From Desulfobacterales bacterium (GTDB lineage: Bacteria > Desulfobacterota > Desulfobacteria > Desulfobacterales > SKZT01), in contig JAGYNR010000003.1 in NCBI GenBank assembly GCA_018399715.1, positions 831-64,830 on the forward strand: a DNA stretch of 64,000 nt, in the 5' to 3' direction. Every line of letters begins with the position of its first letter. Position 1 is the stretch's first letter. A program made the position numbers and the translations under genes. Under the pieces are notes generated by a model, which made no database searches, was not told where the DNA came from, and saw nothing but the letters and a program-made list of their open reading frames with translations. Positions 28,391-48,758 of the stretch are shown here, in pieces.

Positions 28391-28775
28391 GAGAGAGTGA
28401 GAAGGTAACCTAACCCTCTTGTCTTTTTGTGCTAAAAAAAACGGGCTCATATTTAAATACATTGTTTCCTTACCACCAACGGAGGGTGCATTTCATGCAC
28501 CATTAAAGGCTACCTGAACTCACCTTTTCACCTCCTGCTTTCTGCCCTCTGCCTTGTTTCCTTAACAGAAATAATCAACAAGAGCCCCGTGGTTCTCTTT
28601 GACCATTCCTGGTTCGATTTAACCAGGATTTTGGAAGCGGAGGTAACCGGGAACCTCCCTGTTTTCTCCCCAGAGTCATCAGGATCTGAAATTATTTCAG
28701 ATTATTAAATAAATAGGAATCTTTTATACCGTATATTTGTATTTCGGGGTATAATTTTTGCTTATGTTAAATTGC

Positions 28776-30233: not shown

Positions 30234-30263
30234 ATAAGTATGGCGTTTTTTTCGGAAAAAATA

Positions 30264-30292
30264 TTGACAACGATTTATGTTGCCGGTACATA
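30264..30292 (+). promoter_or_regulatory. Candidate sigma-70 promoter with about 150-nt leader for the Cys-rich protein gene
   Basis: TTGACA (30264-30269), 17 nt, TACATA (30287-30292). The -10 is imperfect. Confidence 0.3.
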
Positions 30293-30443
30293 TAAGTATA
30301 TTTAATTTTTTAGTTTGTCTTAACTTTATGGGAAGAAAGGAGGGGATAGGAAAACATAAAGCGTTTTAGAGTGTAAAAAATATTGAAATCATTTAATTTA
30401 GTTGATGAGCGTTCAGGTTTAAAAATTGTTAAAGGAGGAAAGA

Positions 30444-31658: not shown

Positions 31659-31753
31659 AAAACCAAAATTAGTTGCAACAAGCTCTCCAGGTCACATGTT
31701 TTTCAACCATTAAGCAGGCCTGGAAAATGAAAAATTGAAAAACAAACCAAATG

Positions 31754-31792
31754 ATGGGCGGAATTTATTTCAGATTCCGCCCATTTCTTCTG
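31754..31792 (+). terminator. Rho-independent terminator
   Basis: 11-bp perfect stem atgggcggaat / attccgcccat, 9-nt loop, followed by TTCTTCT. Confidence 0.8.
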
Positions 31793-31810
31793 AATGAACC
31801 GAATTCTGTT

Positions 31811-31961
31811 AAATAGTGCCCGAACGAAAACTAGGATTTTTCGTTAAGATCAAGGAAGACAAAAATTTTAATCACAGACATACATTGAGTATTTTGAGGA
31901 TTAAAATTTGAGTCTGACGCAGATATTGGCGAAAAAGACAGTTTTCGTTCAGGCACTAAAT
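31811..31961. repeat. Palindromic intergenic repeat, copy B (inverted relative to copy A)
   Basis: 19-bp terminal inverted repeat tagtgcccgaacgaaaact (31814-31832) / agttttcgttcaggcacta (31940-31958), 1 mismatch. The core (31862-31909) has an 11-bp perfect internal stem aaattttaatc / gattaaaattt. Confidence 0.6.
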
Positions 31962-32108
31962 AAATGGTTAAAAAAATGATTTTAATTTATGATAATTATT
32001 GTTAAATTATGTATAGGTTACAGGCTCCGGAATAAGGCAAAAGAATAAAACAAAAATAGATGATGATATTTTTTATTTAATGCTGTTTATAAAGAGGAAC
32101 ACGGTAAT

Positions 32109-34595
32109 ATGAAAATTAAAGCGTTACTTTTTTTTCTGTTTGGATGGTTTTTATGGTTAGCCCCGTCAACTTATTCTTTTGCATTATCCGGGGGGCCGGA
32201 TGGATTCGGGTATATGTATGAGGATTCCGGACTTGAAAACTGGACGGACATATCCAAATCCGGAACCCATTTGAATGTAGTCAAAGATACCATCAGTGAT
32301 CCGGTTTGGATGGGTTTTGATTTTGAATTTTATGGAAATACTTATAGTGATGTGAGTGTTGCCAGCAACGGACTAATAACCTTCAGTCCGAAGTCTTATC
32401 GCAGGGGATATACATCGGGACAGGAAATTCCTACACCCGGGGGGTATGCGGATAATTTTATCGCCGGATTATGGGACTATCTTTCCCCCAATCACACATG
32501 AGGGGTTGAAAATTTGTATTATGAAACCCGGGGGGTTCCAGGAACGCGTCAATTTATCGTACAATATACCAATGTTATATTTGCAGGCTCTGATACAGAA
32601 AATACCTTTCAGATTATTTTAAATGAAGGCTCCAATGATATAGTGGTAAATTATATAGATGTAACAACCCGACTGAAAGATGGAGAACAAAGGACATTCG
32701 GTGGAATTGAAAATGAAGATGGTACCATTGGGCTTCAGTATGATTTGCTGGATGAAAAAGGAGATTACCAAAATAAATCTGTGCGGTACTTTCCCGGGGT
32801 GGAAACACCGGCTCCCGGCAAAGGAGTTCTTAAAGTCAATTTATTTCCGGAAGAGGCGGTTGAGGCCGGAGCACAATGGCGGCTTTCCGATCAGCGCTGG
32901 CAAGACAGCGGAGCCAGCATAAATGATCTTGAACCCGGCGAATACACGTTGGAATTTCAAGATATCAGCGGATGGGAAACGCCTGCGAATCTTTCGGTTA
33001 ACATTGAAGCTGACGAGATTACCACAAAAGAAGTTACCTATATCCGGGCAACCAGTGAAGATGAAGCTGACGGTCTGAAGGTGTTCATATATCCGGAGGA
33101 GGCTGTGAATGCCGGCGCCAAATGGCGGGTTGATGAGGGTCAGTGGAATGACAGCGGTGTCATCGTTCGCGGCTTGAGCATAGGAGAACATACGGTCAGC
33201 TTTAATACCATTGACGGATGGGATGCCCCGGATGAAATAACCGTCTCTTTGACCCGGCAGTTGCCGATGGCTCCCGGAATTTATACGCTTCCCGAAGAAG
33301 ACAATTTGGAGCAAACCACCTATACACCCAACGATACCACGATAACAAAAAATTCGCTGGTTTTTCCTCATGTCCGTAGCGATAGTACCTGGGAGACCGA
33401 AATAGGGGTGATTAATATCAGCGATACCCAGGAGCTGAACGGTTCTTTTAAATTATATAATAAATATGGCGTCATGGTTTCCGGTTTAGATGCCGTGGTT
33501 ATTTCTCCTCTGGGCAGAAAGGAAGTTACGGTCGGTTTTGATTTTTTATATCCTTATGATGCCTGCTATATCGTGTTTGAGGGTGATCATGAACATCTGG
33601 CCGGCTATATGAGACATTATGCAGATGGCAATTACAGCGTGGCAACTCCCGGTGTCCTGGCTTCCGGGGTTAGCCCCGGGGATATTTTTATTTCTCATAT
33701 TGCCTCACAGGGAACCTGGCAAACATTTATAAGTTTGGTAAACATCAATACGGAGCCGGTTTCTTTGAATATTGAATTTAACAACGGCACTTCAGGACAG
33801 ATTGATATGGATCCGGGAGCTTACCGGTATTTTGCCGTTTCAGATTTGTTTGACGGGCAGGTTCAGCCCGATATTACTTCCGCTGTTATAAAAAATGTTT
33901 CCGGAGTCATCGGAATGGAATTATTTTTAGACAATAGCAGTAAACTGGTAAGTGGCGTGCTTATCGATAACCATACTGCGGACAGACTTTATTTTCCGCA
34001 CATTGCCTTCAGCGAAGGATGGGGAACGGGCATTGTCGTTTATAATCCGTCAGAGACGGCCGCCCAGTTAACCGTTTTAAGTTATGATGCTGAGGGGAGC
34101 ATTCTGGATTCATCGAATATTACTATTCATTCAAACAAAAGATACGCTGGGACCATTGATGATCTTGGACTTCCTCAGTTAACGGAATGGATCCATATTC
34201 AGTCCACTCAGCAAATGATGGGGTTTGAGCTTTTTACAAATACGAACAAGATGGCGGGCTGTAACGGAGTCAATAACAGCCATCAAAACGGCATATTCCC
34301 GAAACTTGAAAAAAACGGTGCCAGCGGTATTGCTTTTGTAAACCCGGAAACGGATCCGGCAAATGTAACCTTAACGGCTTATAATAATGCAGGAGAGCCG
34401 GTCGCTGAAAAATCCCTGACGATTGAACCCAAAAACAAGCTGGTTATGTTTGCACATGATATTTTCAGCCAGAATCTCAAAAATGCTACCTACATCAGAT
34501 ATACTTCAGATCGTCAAATCGTTGGGTTTCAGTTAAATGCCGCTGATGGCGAAGGGATGCTCGACGGGTTGTCAGCCCTGGATATCAGCGAGTAA
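32109..34595 (+). CDS. Secreted multidomain protein interrupted by one in-frame TGA (32499-32501): NIDO-like N-domain, two W-rich beta-sandwich repeats, four FPH-W-T-N modules
   Basis: Track ORFs 32109-32501 and 32514-34595 are in the same frame. Signal peptide MKIKALLFFLFGWFLWLAPSTYSFA. FIAGLWDYL...(TGA)...LYYETRG...FIVQYTNV spans the stop. Confidence 0.6.
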
Positions 34596-37261
34596 TGATG
34601 AAGAGGCTAAGGCGGTTTAAAAGCTTCCTGTTGTCTCAAAACCCGAAGGTATATGGTTGGGCGGTCCTGATACTTTTTATTTTTCCGGTATCCTTTATCA
34701 AAATATATGACTGCGATATCTGGTGGCACATCCAACTGGGCCGAAGTATGCTCGAAAACATGGATTTGCCCGATTACACCCGTTTTTATTTTACCCCTGT
34801 TAACGTTAATTATTCGGATTTACGATATACCTGGTTGGGAGATATTTTTTTTTACGTCCTGCACTACCTGGGTAAAGACTTAAGTCTTCAGCTTCTGGTG
34901 GTGGCTGTGGTCATTTTATCATGTTATCTTCTGTACAGGATTGCCGGTCCGAAATTTAATGCATGGCATCTTTTAACCCTGATGCTGTTTGTGATCGGAA
35001 CCTTTCAAAAACAGCTCATCCGGAATTCCTTATTTGCACTTGTTTTTACGACGCTTATTTTCTGGCTGTGGTGGCAGGTAAGGTACCGGGGAAAAGAAAA
35101 AAAGATATGGTTCTTTCCGGTTCTGATGGGGGTGTGGGGATGTATACATGGCAGCTATTTGCTGGGGTTCGGGGTTATGGCCCTTATTTTTGCGGGGGAT
35201 TGGATTGATACCTTTCGCGGAATCAACCAGGGACGCAAAAAATTGACCTTTCATTATGGAATCGTGACACTGATATCTTTTATTCTGATTGTCGCTTACA
35301 ATCCAATGACAATTCATTATTTCAGGATCAATCAATTAAAGCAGATCTTTTCTCAGGGGGCTGCATCAAAAAAGGTTGTTTATTCAGATGATGATATAAA
35401 AAAGGACTTGTTCCGGCAGCAACCGGAAGAAAGTATTCTTTTGCTGTCCGGCGTTGCAGTTGAAGGGGTTTTCAAAAACGTCAAAACTTTTTTAAATACC
35501 CTCATATTTCAACAGGACAAGGATATTTTACCATCCGGAGATTTTCGTTCTCCGTTTGATTGTTTTTACTGGTTATATGTAAAAGTTTCCTTTTTCATGG
35601 GCTTAATGGGTCTTTTGTTTCTGACCGTTTTTTCGAAGCCGGTAAGGTGTTCCCATCTTTTGCCTTTTTTGGCCATATTGGTGGTTGGATCAGGATATGC
35701 CCGGACAGTCGGGTATATTCCTGTTGCAGCAACATCTGCCGTATTTATTACGGCAAGAAATGAAGAATTTAGCCTTAAAATCAGTGATCAATGGGCCAAA
35801 TGGATAGCCGGTCTGGCATTAATAGCGGTTTACGTTAATCTGGCGACCGGGTACAAAGTCCCTATCGGAACGGATCTCCATATATTCGGGATTGGGAGGA
35901 TACCGACTTATGCCGATGAAAGCGCTCATAAAATTCTCACTGATTTTCCGGAAAAAAAAGTCTTTAACACCATAATGAATGGTGGTTATTTGCTTTATAA
36001 ATGGTATCCGGAAAAAAAAGTTTTTATTGACGGCTTTTTCGCACCCCATCCGTATTCTCTTTTTTTGGATTACGGTAATTGTATCAAAGGAAAAACTGAC
36101 CCGGACGTTTTTCATAAGAAATACGGTGTGGAACTTGCCGTTATTGATCAAATCAGGCGCCCCTTACATAAACAGTTTTTAAAAAGTGATAACTGGCATG
36201 CCCGTTTTATCGATCAGGGGTCGGTTGTTTATGGTTACCAGCCTGATGATACGCTTGTAACCCCAACCCCCGCTATTTTAACCCCTGAACAGCAAATTTT
36301 GAAATTGCCTGTAAAATTTCGAACGCTCTTTGCCCGAAATTTGTTGATGATTCAAAATGATATGGTTAAAAAAGGCAGGCTGAAAGATATCCATCTGTTC
36401 AGAAAAGAGTATGCGAAATTGATCCGGAAAATGGAAAATTTGATGGTCGAGGAATCAAAAACCCTTTATCATTCAATAGATTATTATACAGGAGTATACG
36501 GAACCGTTAATTCAAAAACCATTTCCGATGAAATCGGTCATAATAAGGCATTTAAAGACAACCGGTATGAAAAAGCCGTACATTACGGCATTAAAGTTTT
36601 AGAGAAGATGCCGGAAAGAGTTCCGGTGCTGGTGAATTTATCGGAAATGTTTTCCCGGAATAAAGACGTCAAAAACAGCATAGAGTATCTGGATCGTGCC
36701 TGGGCGGCCCGGAAAAAAGATCCTGGTTTCTGGAGCAGTAACCGCTTTAATATTGCCAGGCTTTGTTTGAAACTTTCATCCTTTGCAAAAAAAAATGGTC
36801 AGTTGTTGACCGCTTACCGGTTGTTGAGCAGAGCCAACAGGACAGACAGTTCGGTAATTTCAAATAATAAATTATATGACATCGGAATTGAATTTGCCAG
36901 GAAAAAAGCCTCTCAGGGACAAGAGATAAAAGCCTATGAAATATTAAAACAAATGGAAATTGATTTCTCAGGTTACGGACGGTTTCATAATCAAATCGCA
37001 TGGTATATTCTGTCGAATAAGGATACGGTTTTCGACGGTCCTGAAGCCGCAAAAAAATATGCTGAAAAAGCGATACGTCTGATGAAAAAAAACAATGATC
37101 CGGATATCGATACCGCCTACCATACCATGGCCGAAGCCTGTTATCAATTAGGAGAATACGACAGGATGCGTGAATTTGAACAAAAAGCCCTGGCGGCCGC
37201 ACCGGATGGCAGAAAGAACTTCTACCAACCGCGGTCAGTTAAGGATCGCGGCAATAAATAA
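34595..37261 (+). CDS. Polytopic (about 12 TM) membrane protein with periplasmic domain and C-terminal TPR repeats; possible GT-C-fold glycosyltransferase
   Basis: DCD in the first periplasmic loop (FIKIYDCDIWWHIQLG), 12 hydrophobic segments in the first ~420 aa, TPR-like C-terminus (AYHTMAEACYQLGEYDRMREFEQKALAAAP). TAATG overlap with the upstream gene. Confidence 0.6.
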   Translation: MMKRLRRFKSFLLSQNPKVYGWAVLILFIFPVSFIKIYDCDIWWHIQLGRSMLENMDLPDYTRFYFTPVNVNYSDLRYTWLGDIFFYVLHYLGKDLSLQLLVVAVVILSCYLLYRIAGPKFNAWHLLTLMLFVIGTFQKQLIRNSLFALVFTTLIFWLWWQVRYRGKEKKIWFFPVLMGVWGCIHGSYLLGFGVMALIFAGDWIDTFRGINQGRKKLTFHYGIVTLISFILIVAYNPMTIHYFRINQLKQIFSQGAASKKVVYSDDDIKKDLFRQQPEESILLLSGVAVEGVFKNVKTFLNTLIFQQDKDILPSGDFRSPFDCFYWLYVKVSFFMGLMGLLFLTVFSKPVRCSHLLPFLAILVVGSGYARTVGYIPVAATSAVFITARNEEFSLKISDQWAKWIAGLALIAVYVNLATGYKVPIGTDLHIFGIGRIPTYADESAHKILTDFPEKKVFNTIMNGGYLLYKWYPEKKVFIDGFFAPHPYSLFLDYGNCIKGKTDPDVFHKKYGVELAVIDQIRRPLHKQFLKSDNWHARFIDQGSVVYGYQPDDTLVTPTPAILTPEQQILKLPVKFRTLFARNLLMIQNDMVKKGRLKDIHLFRKEYAKLIRKMENLMVEESKTLYHSIDYYTGVYGTVNSKTISDEIGHNKAFKDNRYEKAVHYGIKVLEKMPERVPVLVNLSEMFSRNKDVKNSIEYLDRAWAARKKDPGFWSSNRFNIARLCLKLSSFAKKNGQLLTAYRLLSRANRTDSSVISNNKLYDIGIEFARKKASQGQEIKAYEILKQMEIDFSGYGRFHNQIAWYILSNKDTVFDGPEAAKKYAEKAIRLMKKNNDPDIDTAYHTMAEACYQLGEYDRMREFEQKALAAAPDGRKNFYQPRSVKDRGNK

Positions 37262-37345
37262 TCGTGGCGGATAGTCATCGATATTTTCCGCGACTCTTAA
37301 TCTGATTTTATTTATATAGGTCAAGAATGCAAATGGGAGTCATCT

Positions 37346-38041
37346 ATGAAAAAAACAATAAAATTTATTTTTCTGTATTTACCAGCATTTTTTTTCGTAC
37401 TGTATTTTACCTGTCCTGCGGCGGCGTTTATGCCCAACTGGAAACCTGGAGACAGCTGGATTGTTGAGGTTTCCTACGCACGGGCGTTTGGTCCGGAAAA
37501 ATGGTCGGAACCGGTTTACTGGATCTATCGTATTTCTGATGACAAAACACAAGCACAACCCGGTATTATTTTGGAAGCCCGCCATAAAACCGATAATGCT
37601 TTGGGGTTGCGTGTATGGCTTTCCGGTGACCTGGAACCCATTAAAGTTCAGACGTTTCGCAACATCCGGGGAGAAGAGAAGATGATGGAAATTAAACCGG
37701 AACCGGGGTTTCCTGTTTGGATTCATTATACACGCGCTCCCTTTGATTTTCCGGTATTTCCCTTAGATGTTCCCGCAACCGGAACATTTACCAGAATTCG
37801 CCCTTTAAGTAATACCAGCGAGCTCCGGGTGCCAGAAATACTGAAACAGGAAAGTCGGGTAAGTGATGGAATTCCGGAAGGATATGGTTTTGAGCTTCAA
37901 TCCGGTGCCGGGGACATCATAGAAGTGACAGTATTGTCTCAGGAGCAAGAGACGTTGTTTTCTCAGTATTGGGACAAAAACCTCCCCTGGCCCCTATATG
38001 GTGAAAACAAAAACATGAAATACCGTTGGGTGAAAGAATGA
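37346..38041 (+). CDS. Secreted hypothetical protein (231 aa)
   Basis: Signal peptide ...FTCPAAAF, no recognisable motif. Stop overlaps the next start (ATGA). Confidence 0.55.
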   Translation: MKKTIKFIFLYLPAFFFVLYFTCPAAAFMPNWKPGDSWIVEVSYARAFGPEKWSEPVYWIYRISDDKTQAQPGIILEARHKTDNALGLRVWLSGDLEPIKVQTFRNIRGEEKMMEIKPEPGFPVWIHYTRAPFDFPVFPLDVPATGTFTRIRPLSNTSELRVPEILKQESRVSDGIPEGYGFELQSGAGDIIEVTVLSQEQETLFSQYWDKNLPWPLYGENKNMKYRWVKE

Positions 38042-40458
38042 AAAAGATAATTGTTTTATTACTGTTTTTGGCGCTAATTTTTTTTGGATTTGCACCGGTT
38101 TCCGCCGAAATTTACGAGGCAAGACAAATCCCATGGTCCGGACATTGGTGGCCGTTTACCGAAGGAGAGCTTGTCAATGGTTATGAAAATGATCAGGAGC
38201 CGCCATTAGCCAAATATGATATGCTGGTATCGGGAACCGCTTATGGTCCGGCGATGAAATACGGTAAACAAAATTTTTACTACCCGTACAAAGACTCCTG
38301 GACAGGGCTTTGTTTTTACTGGGCAATGTCTTCCATTCTGGAGGCAGAGCCCGAACACCGAAGTGTCCATAATAACGTGATTTTTAATATCGGAGATAAA
38401 AAGGGGCTCTTGGCCGCTTTTTATTATAATGCAATTTATGATGCCCATTCCGTTAAAAAGCCGGAAAACTTTCATGCTGTTCTTGAAGACAATATCGCCT
38501 CACAAAGAACTTCTATCATAATGGATTTGGGCAGTTCTGATGAAGTCTGGACTTATCCGGTGTTTAAATATGAAACTACCTTTAATCAAACCGGAGATGT
38601 CCGTCATTATGAGACGACCATTTACTATGCCTCCTATTCCGACCCTGATCAGACGGGAACCATGGTGAGAAATCGTACCTTTTATTATTATTTTCAGCTG
38701 GATGGAGATGTCGTTATTGACAGCGGCTGGGAGAACGGCAGCGGACAAAAACCACCGAAAAGAGCTTATATTCCCCTGGGCAGAAGACCATTGAGCAACG
38801 CTTTTGATTTGGATGCCGGTTTGATTCATGAAATTGCCGGTTCAAAAGACGATCCGTTTCATGGCAATGATTCGTTTGATACCGCATCGCCGATACAAAG
38901 CGGCGGCTATTGCCTGATAGCTTTCAATTCGGATTTTTTCACGATATATTTGGAAAACGGGGACCGGCTGAATATTCACTTAATTCCTGAAATTTCCGGA
39001 TCCGTTACGCTCGGAATTTATAATGCGGATAAGAAGTCGGTGTTGGACTCCACCCGTAAAGATTACCTGGTTTATCAGGCCGATGAAGCAGGCATTCATT
39101 ATCTGAAGATTGAACCGTCCGGAAATGAAAATAATCCGGTTTATGGGCTTTATATTCTTCAGGCGCTTTCCCGTCAGAGCCTTTTTCCGTTGGATCCGGC
39201 CGGGAACTGGATCAACGGTCTGGCTTTATTGCAACCGGACCCGGAACCAGGGCGTGTGATTCTGTCAAGGATAGATAAAAGCGGATTGCCTTTCAAAGGG
39301 AATCTCATCGATATTTTCGGCGTTCGCCGGACCGGAATCTGTGAGGGGTTTAACCTGTCTTCAGCAGCTATGGAAGGATATATCAGAGTTGACTCCGATT
39401 GGCCTGTTCTTGGAATGCAGGCGGTTACCAGCGGCAATTCCTCTTTGAAAGGCAATAACATGTTATCTTTTGACGAGGCTTCGGATGAACTGTTTTTCCC
39501 TCATTTGGCGGTCTCCCTTTTTGCCGGATGGCAGACCACTGTCGGTTTGATTAATGTCAGTCAACAAAAAGAAGAAATTTTGTTGCAGGGATATGACCCT
39601 GATGGGTCGGTTCTTGTTTCTGAATCGATATCTTTGAATCGGGGAGAGAAAAAAGAATTTAATATATCCGAGTCTTTTTTAACAAATGCGGCGAGTATGA
39701 GTGCGACGGTTGATAGCCGGAGAACCTGCCTGCTGGGATATATGGAATATACCAATTATTCATCCTCGGTTCAGGGGTGCGATGTAATTCCAGCAGCATC
39801 GGGACAGGATAGGGGGGAATTGCTTATCGCTCCCGTCGGCTCCTTAAATGGAAATTGGCATTCAGGTGTTGCTGTCATGAATACCGGGTATGAAACAAGC
39901 GAGGTCTTTTTTTCCGCCATGGATAGTCTGGGTGAAACTGTTCAAACCGTTTCCCGGGTACTGAAACCAAACCAAAAATGGGTAAAAGTCCTTGGCGCTC
40001 TTTTTCCCGGGGCGGTTGTTGAAAATATGGCTTCCATTCGGATTGAATCGCAAAACGGTCAGCCATTGACCGGGCTGGTCCTGTACATCTCCGGCTCCGG
40101 AAGGCAACTGGCCGGAATACCGTTGCTTCCGTCTTCCGAAGAGGTATTGTATGTACCACATATAGCGTCAAACAATGGCTGGTGGACAGGACTGGGACTG
40201 ATCAATGCCGGTAAGGAAGAAGAATGGATTTCCTTCTTTCTGTATGATGATAATGGGACGCTTTTAGATACGGTTGAAAAAGGTCTGTTTCCCGGCGAAC
40301 AATTTAATTCGTCTGTCCGGAACCTGTTTAATCCGGATATGGTTGATAGTCCGGGATATATAGAAATTACCGGCAGTGGAAACTGCCCGCTTAGCGGGGC
40401 GTATCTGATAGGTACACAAGATGGTTATAAACTCATGGGCGATGCACTTGCTCGTTAA
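38038..40458 (+). CDS. Secreted multidomain protein: Cys-containing N-domain (possibly transglutaminase/papain-like), PPC-like domain, four FPH-W-T-N modules
   Basis: Signal peptide MKKIIVLLLFLALIFFGFAPVSA. SWTGLCFYWAMSSILEAEP motif. PPC-like GGYCLIAFNSDFFTIYLENGDRLNIHL...GIHYLKIEP...YGLYIL. Four C-terminal modules from about 39175. Confidence 0.7.
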   Translation: MKKIIVLLLFLALIFFGFAPVSAEIYEARQIPWSGHWWPFTEGELVNGYENDQEPPLAKYDMLVSGTAYGPAMKYGKQNFYYPYKDSWTGLCFYWAMSSILEAEPEHRSVHNNVIFNIGDKKGLLAAFYYNAIYDAHSVKKPENFHAVLEDNIASQRTSIIMDLGSSDEVWTYPVFKYETTFNQTGDVRHYETTIYYASYSDPDQTGTMVRNRTFYYYFQLDGDVVIDSGWENGSGQKPPKRAYIPLGRRPLSNAFDLDAGLIHEIAGSKDDPFHGNDSFDTASPIQSGGYCLIAFNSDFFTIYLENGDRLNIHLIPEISGSVTLGIYNADKKSVLDSTRKDYLVYQADEAGIHYLKIEPSGNENNPVYGLYILQALSRQSLFPLDPAGNWINGLALLQPDPEPGRVILSRIDKSGLPFKGNLIDIFGVRRTGICEGFNLSSAAMEGYIRVDSDWPVLGMQAVTSGNSSLKGNNMLSFDEASDELFFPHLAVSLFAGWQTTVGLINVSQQKEEILLQGYDPDGSVLVSESISLNRGEKKEFNISESFLTNAASMSATVDSRRTCLLGYMEYTNYSSSVQGCDVIPAASGQDRGELLIAPVGSLNGNWHSGVAVMNTGYETSEVFFSAMDSLGETVQTVSRVLKPNQKWVKVLGALFPGAVVENMASIRIESQNGQPLTGLVLYISGSGRQLAGIPLLPSSEEVLYVPHIASNNGWWTGLGLINAGKEEEWISFFLYDDNGTLLDTVEKGLFPGEQFNSSVRNLFNPDMVDSPGYIEITGSGNCPLSGAYLIGTQDGYKLMGDALAR

Positions 40459-40482
40459 TATAATATATGAAAAGCTAACGAA

Positions 40483-41592
40483 ATGAAGAAAAGGAAGAAA
40501 CTGATTTTGAGGCAGATAAAAATTCTATTGTATGTGGCGGTATTGATTCTGTTGTTTACCGCAGGAACGGTATTGGCAAAAGAAACACAAAGGTTGAAGG
40601 TTTTTTTTACCGGGGATCTGAAAGGATGGATAGCTCCTGTTCCGAAATGAGGCGGCACCAACTCGGGCGGTCTGGCCCGGGCTTTAACGGTTATGAAAAC
40701 CATTGCTGAAAAAAATGAAACGGTATTACTGCTGGATGCCGGGGGTATTTACCCAACAGAGAGATACTCAAAAAGAACGGCTGAGATCATTACCCGGATT
40801 GGATTTGAAGCCATGGATTATATGAATTATCAAGCTGTTAATATGGGCCTGAGTGATTTTATGATGGGTCCCCGATATCTTCTTGAACTTTTTTCAACAT
40901 CGGCCTTTCCGATACTAACGTCTAATTTGGTGTATAAAGCTTCCGGACTCACCTTTGGGAAAAAATATGTCATCAGAAATATCCGGGGTGTTCGCGTGGG
41001 TATTCTGGGAATTATGTCCGAAGACAACCTGAATGTCATTAAGGACCAAGAATTTACAGACGCTCTTACCGTATTGCCGCCTGAGCCGATTTTGGCGACC
41101 TTGATTCCCGAAGTGCGGCAAAAAGCGGATCTGGTAATTTTATTATCCCAGGCGGGGTTTGACAGTACCTCTCAACTGATAAAAAAGACCTCCGGAATTG
41201 ATCTGGCCATTGTCGGCAACAACAGTCGGGACGAGTTACCCAAATGCGGAGGCAATGACCATCGTGAGACGTATGAAACCGTAAATGGTACCTTGATTGC
41301 CCCGGTTCGCCGGTTGGGCAGGGCGCTTGGATATGTGAAAATCAAGCTTGATCCTGCGGATCATTCAGTGGAGGGGATGGAATTTACAGAGATTGAACTA
41401 AGCATGAATGTTGCCATGGATTCCGGGCTGGAAAGAATCAGTGGTGCGGATATCTATGTGACCGCCATGAAAGAGATGAAGAAAAATGCCGAAAAGGTGA
41501 GAGGGCAATTGGAAAAAGAAATTGAACAGTTTAAAGAATACAGTCCCGAAGAATATTTTAATCATATTCTATCAGAAAAAAATAAATCATAA
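40483..41592 (+). CDS. Secreted 5'-nucleotidase-fold (calcineurin-like) protein with degenerate metal ligands and an in-frame TGA (40648-40650); candidate selenoprotein or pseudogene
   Basis: ATG 40483 is in frame with track ORF 40693-41592. Signal/anchor MKKRKKLILRQIKILLYVAVLILLFTAGTVLA. FFTGDLKG...K-TGA-GGTNSGGLARA...LLLDAGG...NMGLSDF...LLSQAGF...IVGNNS parallels the 5'-NT motif order. Confidence 0.55.
40662..40681 (+). ncRNA. Candidate bacterial SECIS hairpin
   Basis: Stem CUCGGGC/GCCCGGG (7 bp, one G-U). 6-nt loop GGUCUG at +19..+24 after the UGA. Confidence 0.4.
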
Positions 41593-41639
41593 GCAATAAT
41601 ACTCATAAAATGGAAATGGGAAGAAGGAAGGAAAACAGT

Positions 41640-42041
41640 ATGTCAAGATTTCCAATGAAATACGGTTTATGGATTATTATGGTAACCCTGCTGTTTTCAT
41701 GCAGTACTATCAGGACCGAACCCGATGAAAAAACACTTCATGAGAGAGCTGAAAAGCTATGGCAGGCTAAGATGGAAGGTGACCGGGAAACGATTTACAA
41801 TATGAGTGTTGAATCTTACCGGGAAAAAGTTGAGCTGAAAAGATTTCTTCGAGGTCCGCTTATAAATATTATCAGCTTTTCAATTCAGGAGATCAAAACC
41901 GATTTGCCTGATGCACAGGTGACAGTCAACTATCGATTTTCACATCAGGGTTTCGAATTCGATGCAATTGCCAAAGACCAGTGGGTCTGGGAAAACGAAA
42001 ATTGGTATTTAAAAATGAAACCGTTGAATCTGCCGTTTTAG
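41640..42041 (+). CDS. Small lipoprotein, function unknown
   Basis: Lipobox LLFSC|S. AGGAAGGA RBS upstream of ATG 41640. Confidence 0.55.
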   Translation: MSRFPMKYGLWIIMVTLLFSCSTIRTEPDEKTLHERAEKLWQAKMEGDRETIYNMSVESYREKVELKRFLRGPLINIISFSIQEIKTDLPDAQVTVNYRFSHQGFEFDAIAKDQWVWENENWYLKMKPLNLPF

Positions 42042-42070
42042 AAGCATCCGTTGCTGATTGGTATCCTCAT

Positions 42071-42805
42071 ATGCTAAAAGCCTTAAAGGAGATATCCCGG
42101 GGCATTCGGAGCCGGATAACTTTGAAAAAACCGTTGCGCAGGAGATATTACGACGAAAACTATAAAATGTCCTTGAGACAATGGCTGATCCGTCACCAAA
42201 AAGAGATTGTGTTCGACAAGGTGACGTGGATGGGAATGCCGGTGTGGAAAAATATCCTGGATGCCTGGATATATCAGGAAATTATTTACGAAATCAAACC
42301 GGATGTCATCATCGAAATCGGAAGCCGATACGGCGGCAGTACCCTGTATTTGGCCAATCTTCTAGACTTGTTGGATAAAGGAATTGTTATTTCCATTGAT
42401 AAGGACCGTTCCGTTTACCATCTGGAACATGACCGGGTTAAAGTGCTCACCGGCAGCAGTTCGGATCCGGCAATTATCAGCGAAGTAGACAGGCTGTGCA
42501 AGGGTAAGTCAGCTTTGGTGATTCAGGACGGGGCTCATCATAAGGAGCAGGTGCTCGAAGACCTTGAAAATTATTCCAAATTTGTCGGCATTAACAGTTA
42601 CTTTATCGTCGAGGATGGTATTGTAGATCTGTTTCATCCAGGCGATGGACTCGGGTTTGATCAGGATGGTCCGCTGAAAGCAACGGAGGCGTTTCTTAGA
42701 AGACATTCCGATTTTATCTGTGACAAAAGCCGGGAACGCTATTTACTGACGTATAATCCAGGAGGATTTTTGAAAAGAATTTCAAAAAAGGAAGCTGGTC
42801 AATAA
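42071..42805 (+). CDS. CmcI (cephalosporin hydroxylase)-family class I SAM methyltransferase, sugar O-methyltransferase-like
   Basis: WMGMPVWKNILDAWIYQEIIYEIKPDVIIEIGSRYGGSTLYLA block typical of the CmcI family. Start set to ATG 42071. Confidence 0.7.
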   Translation: MLKALKEISRGIRSRITLKKPLRRRYYDENYKMSLRQWLIRHQKEIVFDKVTWMGMPVWKNILDAWIYQEIIYEIKPDVIIEIGSRYGGSTLYLANLLDLLDKGIVISIDKDRSVYHLEHDRVKVLTGSSSDPAIISEVDRLCKGKSALVIQDGAHHKEQVLEDLENYSKFVGINSYFIVEDGIVDLFHPGDGLGFDQDGPLKATEAFLRRHSDFICDKSRERYLLTYNPGGFLKRISKKEAGQ

Positions 42806-42865
42806 TGATACAACTTTTTTACCTATAGGTTTAGAACTGAAAATGTGGGTAACAATTATAATTTT

Positions 42866-45217
42866 TTAAAAGATCCTTTTCTTGTCTTGAATTGCTTGTT
42901 TTAATTTAAATGCAATTCTATATAACAATCTGGATTTCCTTATAAAACGATAAACAGGATCTAAAATTTTTCTCCGGCTTATCGTTGGATAGTATGTTTT
43001 GTTTTTATGGACGTAGCAGAAGGGCGCATCGATTTCAACCGTCTTTCCGATTGAGAAAACCGGCTGACTATACTGGCCATATTTGCAGCGTGCCCTTTCC
43101 ACAGCAATAGCTGCAGGTAAAATTTGGTAACCAGAGCCAGTCTGGACGTTGCCGATGAGTGAAAAGTAAAGCGAAGAATACTCGTCAGCCATTGATGCCA
43201 CGTTTTTTTGACGGATAGCGGCAACACACTGGCACCGTTTCCTGAAATCCGCTTCGTCATAAAGAATGTTTTCGATTTTGCTGGCGAGGCCCTTGGGGTT
43301 GTTCATATTGTTAAAAATCCACCCACCGTTGGTTTCTGAGACACGTTCATGTAAAGCGCCAATAGACGGAACAAGAGCTGGCAATCCCAGTGCCCATGCT
43401 TCGGACAAAGAATGACAAAAGGTGTCCGGGGATAAGTTGGGAAAAAGAGCAAGGGTGGGATTGACAGGTTTTACAATCTTTGGGAGGTCGTCCCGGAAAT
43501 ACTGACCATGATGGATAATTCGTCTATGCAGAGGTCCGGAAATATTGCCGAAAATATGCAGACGGGCGAGGGTTGGTGGCAGTATTTTGGCGAGTCGATT
43601 TAGCGTTTCCAACCCTTTGTTTTTATCTATTGATCCGATTGTAACGATATTTCCCGGAATTGTTAATTCAGGCGAATAACACCAAGTGTCGTTAAAGTCT
43701 CGACCGTGAGGTATAATTCGGAAATCTCGGTTTACAAGTTTCGGATAATTTCGGCAATAAAGATTCCGTGCAAATCTGGATGTCGTTACAAAAGAATCAA
43801 CCTGTTCCAAGAGATGCTCTACCCGTTTTCGCCAGTGTTTAACAAATTTGTTTTTTAGGTGAGGGGGAGGCAAAAACCACCATTTCATCATCGGGCAATC
43901 ATCAGGATCATCATTGCAAACACCTCCACAAAAAACATTTCGGTTATCGATAAGATGGATGGATGGGCAAATAAAATAACCGTCATGAAAAGACAAAACG
44001 ACAGGAATATTTCTTTTCCTGGCCAGAAAAACAATATCGAACGTATGTCCCAGCAGATGGCGGATATGCAGGAGGTTAATGTTATAATGATCGATCACGC
44101 TTTCGACAATTTGTTGATATTCCCGGCCGACATTGTCGATTAACTGTACTGGTTGTTCGAGTTGGAAACAGCCCAAATCAAAACGGTTATCCTCTTCATA
44201 TTTTCGAAATGCCAATTGCTTGCAGTTTGAACACAATTCATAGCATTGGAATTTCGGGGCTAAAGCACGCATCAGATCGATGTTGGTATAATAGGTTCCG
44301 CCGCGGCCAGCATGTGTTACGAACAGGATCGCAGGCCTCTTATGGCCGCCGGAAATGATGACCCGTTTGTTTATAGCCTGCCGAACTCTTTCGCGTACGT
44401 ATCGTAATGGATCGACTTTTATCCAATCCTGTACCATTTTTGTATAATAGGGATAAAGCGAATCGAGAATTTTCCTGTTGCGGATGATCAGCTCATTTTT
44501 CTCATCCGAAAATGTTTTGTTCCCCAAATGGAAAACATAGGTTGCGTCGTCGGCCAGATGCATCCATCCTGCCTCCTTGGCCCGCATACAAAAGTCGTTC
44601 TCTTCTCCATAACCCCGTCCAAAAAGCTTTTCGTTAAAAAAACCTACCTGATTCAAAGCTTCTCTGCGTATGTACATGCAAAATCCGTTGGTGGTTGGCA
44701 CTTCAGGGTAACGCCGTTCCGTGCAGGTTTGAACCAGATTGGCCATAGCTTCGGGATTATAACCGCTGATCAGGGGATTATCAGTGCACATCCGGGGAAT
44801 GGCAAATATAGAACCATAGCTGGTCAAAGGAGAGGCGGAAGCAACTCGCAAATGTGTACTGATACATGCCCGCAAACTTTTCAGCCACCCGGTGGTTACC
44901 TCTGTATCGCTGTTCAACAGGACGACATCATTGGAAGATTGACGCATGCCAACATTGACCGAGCCTACAAAACCAAGGTTTTTGGGGTTGTGGATAACTG
45001 TAATTCGGTGATCTTTCTCCAATGATGACAGATAATGCTGAAATTCTTGATCCGGACTGGCGTCGTCGACAATGGTCAGCTTGAAAGGATAGTTGGTTTT
45101 CGCTAATATACTGGTCACACAACGACTCAGGATTATTTTCCCATTATAGACAGGAATAATGATATCGACTGGATCAACGGCTACTGGAGACAGATTTGAC
45201 ATAATTTTTTCCACCAC
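42866..45217 (-). CDS. Bifunctional GT2 + GT-B (GT4-like) glycosyltransferase, 783 aa
   Basis: IIIPVYNG, VDDASPDQ, LLNSDTEVTTGW, PTTNGFCMYIRR, GYGEENDFCMRA (GT2). Then ILFVTHAGRGGT ... SEAWALGLPALV (GT-B half). Confidence 0.8.
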   Translation of the reverse strand: MVEKIMSNLSPVAVDPVDIIIPVYNGKIILSRCVTSILAKTNYPFKLTIVDDASPDQEFQHYLSSLEKDHRITVIHNPKNLGFVGSVNVGMRQSSNDVVLLNSDTEVTTGWLKSLRACISTHLRVASASPLTSYGSIFAIPRMCTDNPLISGYNPEAMANLVQTCTERRYPEVPTTNGFCMYIRREALNQVGFFNEKLFGRGYGEENDFCMRAKEAGWMHLADDATYVFHLGNKTFSDEKNELIIRNRKILDSLYPYYTKMVQDWIKVDPLRYVRERVRQAINKRVIISGGHKRPAILFVTHAGRGGTYYTNIDLMRALAPKFQCYELCSNCKQLAFRKYEEDNRFDLGCFQLEQPVQLIDNVGREYQQIVESVIDHYNINLLHIRHLLGHTFDIVFLARKRNIPVVLSFHDGYFICPSIHLIDNRNVFCGGVCNDDPDDCPMMKWWFLPPPHLKNKFVKHWRKRVEHLLEQVDSFVTTSRFARNLYCRNYPKLVNRDFRIIPHGRDFNDTWCYSPELTIPGNIVTIGSIDKNKGLETLNRLAKILPPTLARLHIFGNISGPLHRRIIHHGQYFRDDLPKIVKPVNPTLALFPNLSPDTFCHSLSEAWALGLPALVPSIGALHERVSETNGGWIFNNMNNPKGLASKIENILYDEADFRKRCQCVAAIRQKNVASMADEYSSLYFSLIGNVQTGSGYQILPAAIAVERARCKYGQYSQPVFSIGKTVEIDAPFCYVHKNKTYYPTISRRKILDPVYRFIRKSRLLYRIAFKLKQAIQDKKRIF

Positions 45218-46302
45218 AGATGTATATCGATAAAATCTTTTGATTGATGAAACCCCCTTTGTCTCAACTGTTCTCTGATTTTAATATCATGACAGAGTTT
45301 CATAATAGCGCGATAAGCATCATCTGTGGAATCATGTTGATAATAAAAAGCACAATTCTTGCATATTTCCTGCACATACCCAAGGCGGGGGGCGACGATC
45401 GGAAGTCCGCTCTTCATCGCTTCAGTTAAAGTATTTCCGAAAGTTTCTGTTTTCGATGGGTGAAAAAGACAGGTTGCACTTTTGTATAACGCCCAAACTT
45501 TTTCGGGGGGAAGCTCTCCTAAGTTTATGACTAGATCCTCTAGTCCATTGTCCGTCAAGTCCTTCAAAAATTTTCTTGCTTCAGGAGTCTCTTTTTCATC
45601 TACTGTGATAAAAAATTTAATATTTTCTTTGCGCAACTCTTTTTGGAATGTAGTGACTAGTCTGGATAGAAAAGCATGGTTTTTATGAGGATAGAACCGT
45701 GCGATATATAAAACACTGTGATGGGCAGTTGTCTTTTTCATGGTTTTGATGGTATCGTTTCCAATAATTACAGGATTGGGGAGTATTTCTAATTTTTTTT
45801 TATTGCCGAAAACATTGATAAAGTGGTTTCGCATTAAAGGACTCTGCACAATGATTTTGTCTGTGGTTATCAGTGTGGCAAGAAAAAGAATTTTCCGAAG
45901 AATTTCAACAAAGCGGTTTGAAAAGGAAAGGCGGTTAATAAAGTTTTTTTGAACAAGGTAGGAATGACGCAGGTATACTATTTTACGGGTGCTGCAAGGC
46001 AAAGGTGAATAATTAGCCAGCACCAGGATAGCTTCCGGCTGATAATAAGCCGTTAAAAACGGAAATATCCAAAAATCTACAAAAACCCTTGAAAGATAAG
46101 CCCATGGCTTGCTAAAAGCAGGGAAAAAAAAAGTATGCTTTCCTCTCGGCACAGTCAAAAAATCCCTTATCCCCGGTAAAATAAAGAGACATTCGTTGAA
46201 AGATACCGCCGGTAATTCGGTCAGCAGTGCCCGGGTAATTGATAGTGGTCCCATCCCCGTTGTATTATAAGAATAGATCAATAATCGGACTTTTTTTTGC
46301 AT
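45181..46302 (-). CDS. GT4 glycosyltransferase
   Basis: C-terminal TETFGNTLTEAMKSGLPIVAP EX7E-type region. Start set at MQKKVRLLIYSY. Confidence 0.7.
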   Translation of the reverse strand: MQKKVRLLIYSYNTTGMGPLSITRALLTELPAVSFNECLFILPGIRDFLTVPRGKHTFFFPAFSKPWAYLSRVFVDFWIFPFLTAYYQPEAILVLANYSPLPCSTRKIVYLRHSYLVQKNFINRLSFSNRFVEILRKILFLATLITTDKIIVQSPLMRNHFINVFGNKKKLEILPNPVIIGNDTIKTMKKTTAHHSVLYIARFYPHKNHAFLSRLVTTFQKELRKENIKFFITVDEKETPEARKFLKDLTDNGLEDLVINLGELPPEKVWALYKSATCLFHPSKTETFGNTLTEAMKSGLPIVAPRLGYVQEICKNCAFYYQHDSTDDAYRAIMKLCHDIKIREQLRQRGFHQSKDFIDIHLWWKKLCQICLQ

Positions 46303-46463
46303 ATTTCGTTTTTTCTGTAAGAATCCCGGAGAAATAAAAAAGATGAGTTTTATGTTCATCTTCAACACATTAAGATAAAACTAAATATAAACTTTAAATT
46401 ACTATTAAAATACAACATCCATGTCAATCCAAAATTAGAATTGCTGAGTATACATTTGAGTTG

Positions 46464-46492
46464 TTGACCCAATTTGCTTTATTTGGTAATAA
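46464..46492 (+). promoter_or_regulatory. Candidate sigma-70 promoter in an AT-rich divergent intergenic region
   Basis: TTGACC (46464-46469), 17 nt, TAATAA (46487-46492). Confidence 0.3.
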
Positions 46493-46588
46493 TTTTATAT
46501 ATTTAATTATTATTTTGAAGTCAGAAGGAAACGGTATTTACTCAATTTTAATAATCTCCCTATAATATTGTATATAGACGTATATGAG

Positions 46589-47473
46589 ATGCTTGATATT
46601 ATCATTGTGAATTACAACAGCACTGATTTTCTTATCAATTGCCTAAATTCGATCAGAGAATCTCTTAATGGCGTGCGAGCTGATATTTTTGTTCAGGATA
46701 ATGCCTCTACCGACGGAATAGAAAGGGTTCAAAAAGTATTTCCCAGCGTAAATTTCAACTGCAATAAACGAAATGTGGGATTTGCCGCGGGCGTCAATCA
46801 GGTTATTTCCAAAGGGAAAAACCCCTATGTAATGCTTTTGAATCCTGACACTTATGTGACTGACAAATTTTTTAATATTAGTATGGATTTCATTAGAAAA
46901 AATCCAAGGGTCGGTATTGTAGGACCCAAGGTGATTGAAAAAGATGGCAGACTTCAAAATTCTGCCAGATCTTTTCCTACACTTTTGACATGCGCATTCG
47001 GAAGATCGTCGTTTTTGTCCAGATGCTTTCCCCAAAATATAATAAGCCGGAAAAATCTGCTCAGTATTGACTCAGACGGCCAATCTCCAATGGAGGTTGA
47101 TTGGGTTTCAGGAGCGTGTATGCTGATAAACAGGAAGGCCATAGAATCCGTGGGTCTTCTGGATGAACGTTTTTTTTTGTATTGGGAGGATGCGGATTGG
47201 TGTCGAAGGATGTGGCAAAACGGCTGGAAGGTAATCTATTTTCCCAAAGCAACTATTTATCATTACTCCGGAGCAAGCAGCAGAAAAAAATTAGTACCAT
47301 CAATTCTGGAATTTCATAAAAGTGCCTATAAGTTGTTTGAAAAATACCTGGACTCTTCTTTGGCGGTAATTAAGCCGTTTGTTTATTATGGGCTTCTGAT
47401 TCGATCCGCATTTGTAATTGGTTTTCGCATTTGTCAAAAATTTTACAAAAACTGTTCAAAAAAAAGAAATTAA
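46589..47473 (+). CDS. GT2 glycosyltransferase (rhamnosyltransferase-like)
   Basis: IIIVNYNS, QDNASTDG, LLNPDTYV, VDWVSGACMLI, YWEDADWCRR motifs. Confidence 0.85.
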   Translation: MLDIIIVNYNSTDFLINCLNSIRESLNGVRADIFVQDNASTDGIERVQKVFPSVNFNCNKRNVGFAAGVNQVISKGKNPYVMLLNPDTYVTDKFFNISMDFIRKNPRVGIVGPKVIEKDGRLQNSARSFPTLLTCAFGRSSFLSRCFPQNIISRKNLLSIDSDGQSPMEVDWVSGACMLINRKAIESVGLLDERFFLYWEDADWCRRMWQNGWKVIYFPKATIYHYSGASSRKKLVPSILEFHKSAYKLFEKYLDSSLAVIKPFVYYGLLIRSAFVIGFRICQKFYKNCSKKRN

Positions 47474-47507
47474 AAAATGGGAAAAAACTAAATGATCAGA
47501 TCTGCGT

Positions 47508-48758
47508 TTACCCGAGAGCTTTAAAAATAGTTTTAGTGAAAAATGAAGCCCATACAGTATAGTCAAACTTTTTTCGTACGAAGTCATACCCATTCATTCC
47601 GATTTTTTGGCGCAATGTTGAATCTTTAATTAAACAAATCAAAGCTTTCTGCCATTGATCCGAATTATTAGCCAAAAATCCATTTTCCTTGTTTTTAATT
47701 AAGTTGCAGTTGACACCAACAGGAGATGCTACCGATGGAATGCCTGAAGCCATATACTCTAGTAGTTTAAAACCGCCTTTGCCTCTGGTGTATGCATTAT
47801 CAGAAAGCGGCATAATTCCGATATCGAATGCTTTCAAGTCTTGATTTGCCGTATTTTTTGACCACTTTCTAAATTCTGTTGGCACCCCCTTTATGTGAAT
47901 GGATCTTGAGGAAATAACCCGAAGGATTATATCATAAGTTGACGCTATTGCAGACAAAGGTGATGCTACTTGTTGAAGGTATTTAACATTACCGCCTCCG
48001 CCGATCCATCCGATAACCAATGGCTTAATGGGCCTGTGAACTTTTTGGAAGTATTTATCAGTTTCTACAAGAGTAGGGATGACGACAACAGACGGATTTA
48101 ATTTTCTTGCATGGTCTGCAATATACGGTGTACTGACAATGATTGTTTTGCTAAGTCTAACATTCCATTTAAAGCGCATGTTTGCCAATTTGGAAAGCAG
48201 TCGATTTCCTGCCATACTCGAGTGCGGAGGTAACAGCCATATAGCATCATCTATATCGTACACAATATTTGGATTGAGAAGCTTTAGAACAAAGATAAAT
48301 AGAGGTGGATCATAAAAAAATTCACTCATGATTTCTCTTTGAAGGAAAACACCATCGAATCGGGGCGCTGACCATAGCACAAAAAATCGCCGGAAAAATA
48401 GAAGAACAAAAAAAACATAATGGCGGTAAATTTTACCTTTCAAATAGAGCCCGCGATACAGTGAAGATGATACAGGCGGATAAATATGAAGTCGAATACG
48501 TTTTTTGTCAATATATGTTGTGTAGTTATAGAGCCGCTGACGCGCACTGGCGTTTTCATCCGGCATGTAAGCAAGGCATAGAATATCCCGAACTCGATCA
48601 GCACCTTTAGTTTGATCCCTACTGCATTTTTTTCTTTGCTTTTTGCTATTTGGAATCATTTTTATATACGTTCCCTTAATCAGCAGCAGAAGAAAAAAAA
48701 GTGCAGCTAACGGTGTAAAAGTGATCAAATAAATAATCTTCCAGAATCGTGTTAACAT
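47508..48758 (-). CDS. Membrane-anchored GT-B glycosyltransferase
   Basis: N-terminal TM. C-terminal GGFKLLEYMASGIPSVASPVG region. Confidence 0.65.
   Translation of the reverse strand: MLTRFWKIIYLITFTPLAALFFLLLLIKGTYIKMIPNSKKQRKKCSRDQTKGADRVRDILCLAYMPDENASARQRLYNYTTYIDKKRIRLHIYPPVSSSLYRGLYLKGKIYRHYVFFVLLFFRRFFVLWSAPRFDGVFLQREIMSEFFYDPPLFIFVLKLLNPNIVYDIDDAIWLLPPHSSMAGNRLLSKLANMRFKWNVRLSKTIIVSTPYIADHARKLNPSVVVIPTLVETDKYFQKVHRPIKPLVIGWIGGGGNVKYLQQVASPLSAIASTYDIILRVISSRSIHIKGVPTEFRKWSKNTANQDLKAFDIGIMPLSDNAYTRGKGGFKLLEYMASGIPSVASPVGVNCNLIKNKENGFLANNSDQWQKALICLIKDSTLRQKIGMNGYDFVRKKFDYTVWASFFTKTIFKALG

Follow-up and report, generated by a model that had tools for sequence, protein, structure and literature searches.

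A gene with an in-frame UGA and a SECIS-type hairpin as a candidate for an exported UshA-like selenoprotein in a Desulfobacterales contig

RESULTS

One reading frame across an in-frame UGA

We analyzed a 64,000-nucleotide (nt) stretch of contig JAGYNR010000003.1 from a Desulfobacterales bacterium, referred to below as the window, and in it a gene on the plus strand at 40483–41592 that is a candidate for encoding an exported selenoprotein. The frame opens with ATG 40483, the first start codon after stops at 40456 and 40468, and closes at TAA 41590–41592. It contains a single in-frame TGA (40648–40650) and comprises 369 codons when this triplet is taken as the codon for selenocysteine (Sec) 56. 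Its translation reads MKKRKK...FFTGDLKGWIAPVPK, followed by the TGA and then by GGTNSGGLARALTVMKTIAEKNETVLLLDAGG... The candidate Sec codon falls in a loop after strand beta-1 and a vestigial motif I. The first-pass annotation of this DNA had traced the frame from ATG 40483 through the TGA and onward into the open reading frame (ORF) at 40693–41592, which the sequence bears out. It had also placed the TGA inside one domain, and in full-length homologues the signal peptide and strand beta-1 are indeed contiguous with the rest of the protein.

Public records hold only the downstream ORF (40693–41592, plus strand; 299 amino acids, to which P0001 is identical), either unnamed or, at JGI, as a 2',3'-cyclic-nucleotide 2'-phosphodiesterase. 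We looked for a sequence resembling a Shine-Dalgarno (SD) element 5' of ATG 40693 and found none. The 299-amino acid ORF is a truncation artifact that results from reading the UGA as a stop. Elsewhere in the window UGA is an ordinary stop, as had been claimed: among 50 long ORFs, 28 end with TAA, 12 with TAG, and 10 with TGA. Only two long in-frame TGAs were found on coding strands within the 64 kb.

A hairpin downstream of the UGA agrees with the bacterial SECIS model

The UGA is followed by a hairpin of the bacterial Sec insertion sequence (bSECIS) type at 40662–40681 on the plus strand. Its stem pairs CUCGGGC (40662–40668) with GCCCGGG (40675–40681) around the loop GGUCUG (40669–40674), at exactly the positions given in the first-pass annotation. 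The stem, a perfect 7–base pair (bp) helix whose inner five G-C pairs form the conserved core, begins 11 nt after the UGA and the loop 18 nt after it; the predicted fold has an energy of −14.1 kcal/mol. The published bSECIS model expects a loop of 3 to 9 nt with G in its two initial positions, a stem of 4 to 16 bp, a UGA-to-loop distance of 16 to 37 nt, and a minimum free energy of at most −7.5 kcal/mol (PMC13188914 Fig. 2A). The window hairpin falls within all four limits, with a 6-nt loop starting with GG, 7 bp, 18 nt, and the energy just given.

The hairpin had been likened to the SECIS of Escherichia coli fdhF, whose sequence the first-pass annotation quoted. The string is accurate: this 42-mer recurs at 100% identity, with the annotation fdhF, in no fewer than 5,413 E. 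coli genomes. The claim of an identical loop offset also held, because GGTCTG lies 18 nt past the TGA in both genes. The two elements further share a stem that starts 11 nt after the UGA and the loop G-U at +23/+24, the G23/U24 positions. In the E. coli fdhF SECIS, the 5' arm of the stem carries a bulged U17 and the loop is GGUC, of 4 nt; the stem in the window, in contrast, is a perfect G-C–rich helix of 7 bp that lacks a bulged U and closes a loop of 6 nt.

The UGA column and the hairpin are conserved among relatives

Relatives (loci numbered L, proteins numbered P) were analyzed using DNA drawn from assemblies, species-representative genomes, and metagenomes. Searching proteins with the joined product turned up five close relatives, all called as proteins of ~290 to 300 amino acids that start after the TGA column, and more distant relatives of full length. 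TGA occupies the identical column in 10 distinct loci with ~30 to 68% amino acid identity (the window, L001, L002/L004, L003, L008, L009, L010, L011, L015, and L016), hereafter the Sec forms. Named relatives come from metagenome-assembled genomes (MAGs) of Desulfobacteraceae, Desulfobacterales, and Syntrophales. The peptide is kept on both sides of the codon, following the pattern F/Y-T-G-x-x-x-G ... P-x-U-G-G-x-x-[SA]-G-G-L-A-R. Full-length homologues with Cys at the UGA column (Cys forms) align end to end with the window protein; among their motifs are PVPACGG and PVPTCGG, which correspond exactly to PVPKUGG in the window.

An exhaustive profile search (E ≤ 1e-30, one sequence per 50%-identity cluster) gave 1,040 representatives, of which the best 150 were classified at the Sec column. 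Eighty-two start 0 to 27 residues past the column; Cys stands there in 29 and a different residue in 3. A further 30 are long multidomain proteins and 6 are fragments. The late starts suggest that the family is made up mostly of Sec forms shortened by gene callers, the DNA having been checked for ten. The alignment of orthologues that the first-pass annotation had proposed as a check thus shows a column held by TGA in the 10 loci and by Cys in 29 of these 150 representatives.

We then compared the hairpins. The core CGGGC-(GGNCUN)-GCCCG is present in 10 of 10 Sec forms, with energies between −10.0 and −14.3 kcal/mol; in L002 the loop reads GGGCUU. Thirteen non-Sec forms have a mean of −6.5 kcal/mol (Mann-Whitney p = 0.0016 against the Sec forms, uncorrected for phylogeny). 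For pairs of Sec forms that share less than 45% amino acid identity, matching residues are encoded by the same codon at a rate of 76% (221/291) within the ten codons after the UGA and of 36% (1184/3288) over the remainder of the gene. The stem codons for Gly+6 (GGC) and Ala+9 (GCC) are unchanged in all 10 Sec forms, while invariant Gly and Ala columns elsewhere in the gene use three to four codons. The chance of obtaining the exact core from a gene's own codon usage is 0.006 for the window (42% GC) and 0.007 to 0.057 for the other Sec loci. Thus, the excess of identical codons and the low probability of the core under codon usage show selection on the hairpin at the RNA level.

The idea that the hairpin is exclusive to UGA forms was rejected, as the same stem is present in the Cys-form loci L034, L036, and L039. 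Its chance expectation is 0.15 in the GC-rich L039, where it is unremarkable, and 0.02 to 0.03 in L034 and L036. The latter two, which are of the CIACAC type, carry an identical UCGGGCGGUCUGGCCCGG hairpin of −13.9 kcal/mol (L034 6139–6174 and L036 6148–6180), which in L036 sits at SECIS distance from a UGC codon. This could be the fossil of a SECIS, left behind when Sec recently gave way to Cys, or an element that is still used. SECIS-like hairpins in Cys-form members are an unusual lead.

A 5'-nucleotidase fold with a vestigial metal site

The N terminus of the window protein shows, by inspection, a basic n-region, a hydrophobic core, and a small-x-small site. The predicted signal peptide, likewise read by inspection, is encoded at 40483–40578 on the plus strand (MKKRKKLILRQIKILLYVAVLILLFTAGTVLA, then KE). 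Because every family member examined has a similar N terminus of the basic-hydrophobic-AxA type, the window protein is probably exported.

In a Pfam search, the joined protein matched nothing but HEM4, below threshold, and had no hit to PF00149. The fold emerged from the structure of a Cys homologue, P0007, which is 37% identical to the window protein. Its AlphaFold (AF2) model has a predicted local distance difference test (pLDDT) score of 82 and a predicted template-modeling (pTM) score of 0.79. Foldseek matched this model to E. coli c4898 (3ivd), UshA, and human CD73 with E ~1e-21 and template-modeling (TM) scores of 0.62 to 0.68, and the family profile run against the Protein Data Bank (PDB) hit CD73 at E ~1e-29. 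The Sec/Cys loop of P0007 (residues 45–49) has a pLDDT below 50, and thus the Sec/Cys residue cannot be placed in three dimensions.

With UshA, CD73, and the thiosulfohydrolase SoxB (calcineurin-like metallophosphoesterases, PF00149 plus PF02872), the window protein shares the N-domain fold, the order of motifs, the GGLAR helix, the LLLDAG strand, and probably export. It differs from them in lacking the di-metal ligands and the PF02872 domain. The canonical TNDxHS reads TGDLKG in the window, DAGD reads DAGG, GNHEF reads GLSDF, GHSG reads SQAG, and GGHSN reads VGNNS. The ligand changes are therefore H to K, D to G, N to L, H to S, H to Q, and H to N, so that six of the seven di-metal/catalytic residues are lost and the first Asp alone is kept. 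In place of the C-terminal nucleotide/substrate-binding domain PF02872 there is a helical tail of ~70 residues with a conserved SPEEY end. The first-pass annotation had recognized the order DxHG ... LLDAGD of calcineurin-like 5'-nucleotidases; the order stands, but the catalytic residues do not (TGDLKG, DAGG, and GLSDF). Because the metal ligands and the C-terminal domain are missing, the window protein is not a functional 5'-nucleotidase: as judged from its sequence, it has the fold without the chemistry.

The protein has one Cys, Cys255 (codon 41245–41247, plus strand), located in an insertion after the vestigial motif V. Eight of 10 Sec forms have Cys at this column, as do the single-Cys forms. 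Proteins with CC and CxCxC Sec-loops lack both this Cys and the insertion loop. Cys255 may be the resolving partner of Sec56. In 5'-nucleotidases, motifs I and V lie on either side of the metal site, and a U56–C255 redox pair can therefore be proposed at the emptied site. A Cys of human CD73 had also been invoked in support of Cys or Sec at this loop. CD73 does read SRCMGGVARL, but this Cys is not the positional equivalent of Sec, and we rejected the analogy: the Cys residues of CD73 precede GG by 1 and 7 residues, and the U of the window protein by 5. The two CD73 residues form a structural disulfide.

Position among the UshA-like selenoproteins

Selenoproteins described as "COG0737, UshA-like," which number 76 sequences and have a CxU motif, were reported from the GOS metagenome in 2008 (PMC2398784). 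UshA-like selenoproteins are covered in reviews (PMC9312934 and PMC13188914), the latter of which lists UshA-like selenoprotein family 2 (CxxU) as "GenBank annotated"; the function of these proteins is not given in the cited literature. UshA-like selenoproteins are thus already catalogued and only the subfamily described here is new, so the novelty implied by the first-pass annotation was too high.

NCBIfam has one model for each of these two groups: NF041198 (UshA_like_PCGU, CxU; cutoff of 275 bits, 519 positions) and NF049981 (CxxU; 140 bits, 262 positions). NF041198 is the best NCBIfam match of the window protein (E = 5.7e-42), followed by NF049981, SoxB, and 5'-nucleotidases, and it is also the best family match for every relative tested. 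The window protein scores 144 bits over model positions 4 to 338 (~335/519); together with ten relatives the range is 118 to 170 bits, all below the cutoff of 275. The match to NF049981 amounts to 43.3 bits for the window (protein 38–119 against model 1–84) and to 41 to 62 bits for the window and its relatives, below the cutoff of 140.

As a control we used P0188, a bona fide NF041198 member (292.6 bits). Its Sec-loop EPCG-C-AEGQ-SGG corresponds to PVPK-U-GGTN-SGG in the window, with U/C four residues before SGG in both, and hmmalign puts the two U/C residues in one column. We also observed a PCG-TGA form in L025. The Sec position of the window protein is thus homologous to that of NF041198. 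Both groups have an N-domain of the 5'-nucleotidase type that is probably exported. The differences are several. The window protein has no Cys at −2 (P-K-U as compared to C-G-U), and none of the Sec forms, which read VPxU, RRGU, IPQU, KHLU, and VPGU, has one. It lacks the N-terminal DUF1573/OS_HP2 domain of P0188, and it has no CxxCH, while P0188 carries four C-terminal CxxCH heme motifs of a multiheme cytochrome c. Instead of the Cys of CxU, the clade of the window keeps the distal Cys255. Its operon, with a transglutaminase (TGase)–like protein and a small lipoprotein, is distinctive as well, and so is its SECIS. In the PCGU-type Sec form L025 (2855–2920), which reads EPCG*RPPSGGLAR with the asterisk marking the TGA, the predicted hairpin is different and lies further downstream than in the window's clade. 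The SECIS is therefore not common to both subfamilies, although the Sec position is homologous.

To NF049981 the window protein is weakly homologous along its N-terminal ~85 residues, the Sec loop included, and in both Sec lies in the N-terminal part. The window protein, however, has Val rather than Cys at −3 (V-P-K-U) and matches only one third of the model. From these sequence comparisons, the window's clade is best described as a third, shorter UshA-like selenoprotein subfamily, which is mis-annotated and has no model of its own. It would add to the UshA-like selenoproteins a subfamily whose phosphatase fold no longer has its metals and carries Sec at the former active site. Public pipelines shorten this probable selenoprotein gene to one for a 299-amino acid "phosphodiesterase," and the same seems to hold for most of the family; a dedicated family model would correct many annotations in Desulfobacterota.

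Conserved partners, domain fusions, and genomic context

Directly downstream of the gene, at 41610–42041 on the plus strand, lies a gene for a lipoprotein of ~140 amino acids, with no family match in Pfam or NCBIfam. A homologue is found directly downstream in the window, L001, L003, L004, L005, L007, L008, L011, L015, L034, and L037, and the lipobox Cys is kept in 9 of 10. On the other side, 38026–40458 (plus strand) encodes an 810-amino acid secreted TGase-elicitor–like protein (PF16683; 46 bits against a cutoff of 25). Homologues of this protein adjoin the gene in seven loci (the window, L001, L003, L004, L008, L011, and L037). The lipoprotein and the TGase-elicitor–like protein are likely to be partners of the selenoprotein.

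Domain fusions and neighboring genes were also surveyed among the relatives. The UshA-like domain is fused to AhpC/Redoxin in P0210 and P0211 and to Cytochrome_C554 in P0064. P0188 joins a DUF1573/OS_HP2 Ig-like domain, the UshA-like domain, and a multiheme Cytochrome_C554, and P0071, another fusion of the UshA-like domain, runs from a DsbA-like domain to a Cytochrome_C554. OS_HP2, itself a selenoprotein family, is encoded by a neighboring gene in L005 and L007; in the contexts of L005, L006, L009, and L011 there are no recurrent selenium genes except for this OS_HP2 gene in L005. The Cys forms L034 and L036 have CcdA/DsbD_TM, thioredoxins, DsbC, and VKOR as neighbors, together with genes for ArsC-type LMWPc, ACR3, ArsP, and CDF efflux. 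The fusions with AhpC/Redoxin, DsbA-like, and multiheme domains, the Dsb and thioredoxin neighbors, the selenium gene cluster of L007 described below, and the Cys pattern point to a redox role. We infer that the protein provides an extracytoplasmic selenol/thiol redox center or one that handles chalcogens or metalloids.

A selC*/selB* cluster next to a Cys form

In L007, a Syntrophales MAG, the Cys-form UshA-like gene stands in the order LysR_Sec_metab, selC*, selB, Cys-form UshA-like gene, 133-amino acid partner, OS_HP2 (seleno)protein, YedE. LysR_Sec_metab is a LysR regulator of selenium metabolism, and YedE transports selenium. At L007 3784–3878 there is a 95-nt tRNA that matches the Rfam tRNA-Sec family (47 bits, E = 1.5e-8); its anticodon is GCA (Cys) and its discriminator is U. 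This tRNA is followed by a SelB gene at 4006–5919, and the same arrangement occurs in L014. tblastn of the SelB, YedE, OS_HP2, and LysR proteins of L007 against the window gave no match. The tRNA-SelB pair corresponds to the published selC* tRNA-Cys and selB*; such systems occur in Desulfobacterales and Syntrophobacterales, and a selC* tRNA-Cys with a UCA anticodon can read UGA as Cys (PMC5389517). Downstream genes and SECIS elements of selC*/selB* are undiscussed in that work.

These findings open a broader reading, in which a large, mis-annotated third UshA-like lineage, with a lone Sec and a distal Cys in an emptied di-metal site, would be a natural client of selC*/selB*. It draws support from the selC*(GCA)-selB* pair directly upstream of the Cys form in L007, and from the Cys forms L034 and L036, which keep a hairpin that codon usage would give in only 2 to 3% of cases. 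We regard this broader reading as improbable. If it were true, Cys would be inserted at sense codons in a SECIS-directed, SelB*-mediated manner, which would provide a physiological target for selC*/selB*.

How the UGA is read

We consider it highly probable that 40483–41592 is one gene encoding a 369-residue exported selenoprotein, with Sec inserted at the UGA through SelB and the hairpin. In substance this is what the first-pass annotation had proposed, namely, an exported selenoprotein of 5'-nucleotidase fold with an fdhF-like SECIS, and it is backed by the conserved TGA, the Cys homologues, the conservation at synonymous sites, the agreement with the bSECIS model, the fold, and the signal-peptide–like N termini. 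During translation, the hairpin at 40662–40681 would recruit SelB carrying Sec-tRNA(Sec), and SelB would insert Sec at UGA 40648–40650 as residue 56; without selenium or SelB, translation would stop after 55 residues. Sec56 would then lie in the loop after the first beta-strand, on the rim of the former metal site and at the U/C position of NF041198. There it would probably form a selenenylsulfide pair with the single Cys255, which in this clade would replace the CxU motif, and the selenoprotein would act with the conserved small lipoprotein encoded downstream.

Several observations weigh against Sec insertion directed by the hairpin. Its stem shows no compensatory changes, as among the 10 Sec forms the five core pairs are invariant and the two outer ones are retained in part. 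The hairpin encodes the conserved SGGLAR peptide, and thus protein constraint contributes to its conservation; the identical stem also recurs in the three Cys-form loci. The first-pass annotation had suggested folding 40640–40710, and this local fold is no more stable than that of shuffled sequences (z = −0.37), so the significance of the hairpin rests on comparative data and not on single-sequence energy. Rfam gave no SECIS or other relevant match, either for the whole window at the gathering threshold or for 40560–40780 at E ≤ 10. None of selA, selB, selC, and selD is present in the 64-kb window, in which ARAGORN found no tRNA. According to the literature, the lineage, Desulfobacterota, is rich in Sec. 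Last, L037 has Tyr at the Sec/Cys column (6001–7104, P0008) within an operon of the same type as in the window, consisting of genes for an 889-amino acid TGase-like protein, the UshA-like protein, and a 144-amino acid partner. This indicates that the chalcogen is not indispensable in every lineage and has been lost in at least one.

The UGA might instead be recoded by a SECIS/SelB-type route but read wholly or partly as Cys, through a selC* with a UCA anticodon and selB*, so that Cys or a Sec/Cys mixture would be incorporated depending on selenium supply. We judge this, the serious one among the alternatives, unlikely. Such systems exist in Desulfobacterales and a selC*(UCA) has the required decoding capacity, a selC*(GCA)-selB* pair lies directly upstream of the Cys form in L007, and Cys is tolerated at the column in many homologues. 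However, the window contains no selC*, selB*, or cysS*, and the selC* of L007 has the anticodon GCA, not UCA, and belongs to another order (Syntrophales). Moreover, UGA has been kept over UGC across about six lineages, which is normally read as a sign that Sec brings an advantage.

It is very unlikely that the TGA is a true stop, either separating a 55-amino acid peptide from a 299-amino acid cytoplasmic protein or marking a pseudogene or an assembly error, with the hairpin a by-product of the SGGLAR codons. Such a stop would agree with the public annotation, with a hairpin that overlaps a conserved peptide, occurs in some Cys forms, and has a stem without covariation, and with the z value of −0.37. 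But the same TGA is found in 10 loci from independent samples with coding kept on both sides, which rules out both an assembly error and a recent pseudogene. The signal peptide and strand beta-1 are encoded by the 55 upstream codons and would be missing from the 299-amino acid product, ATG 40693 has no SD-like sequence before it, and the stem codons are unexpected from codon usage (p ~ 0.006 in the window). Finally, SECIS-independent read-through of the UGA by near-cognate Trp, Cys, or Arg tRNAs, or a reassigned code, is scarcely credible: low-level read-through of in-frame UGA does occur in many bacteria and the operon holds a second in-frame TGA, but UGA ends 10 of 50 ORFs with just two long in-frame TGAs on the coding strands of the 64 kb, the homologues have Cys and not Trp, Gly, or Arg at the column, and a conserved hairpin stands at SECIS spacing.

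The envelope gene cluster and a second in-frame TGA

The region 28758–48758 of the window is a cluster of genes for secreted and envelope proteins. It starts with a CAP-domain protein (28758–30233) and includes an 888-amino acid TPR protein (34595–37261) and a 231-amino acid protein, both syntenic in L001 and L003, as well as two TGase-elicitor–like paralogues. Genes of polysaccharide type follow, for a CmcI-like methyltransferase (41981–42805) and, on the minus strand, for a GT2/GT4 glycosyltransferase (42866–45217).

The same operon contains a second candidate for a recoded gene at 32109–34595 on the plus strand. This gene and the selC*-selB*-yedE linkage in the Syntrophales relative may outweigh the main finding in interest. 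The in-frame TGA of this second gene at 32499–32501, in the context ...LWDYLSPNHT*GVENLYYETRG... (asterisk, TGA), splits a 130-amino acid ORF with a signal peptide from a 693-amino acid ORF, the two of which lie in one frame and read as one continuous domain. No Cys homologue of this gene was found, and distant homologues are gapped at the TGA column. An orthologue in L038 that is 60% identical has TGA at the same column (L038 3394–3396), and the window and L038 have in common a weak hairpin, 24 to 42 nt past the TGA, with one compensatory pair. A second selenoprotein encoded at 32109–34595 is thus possible.

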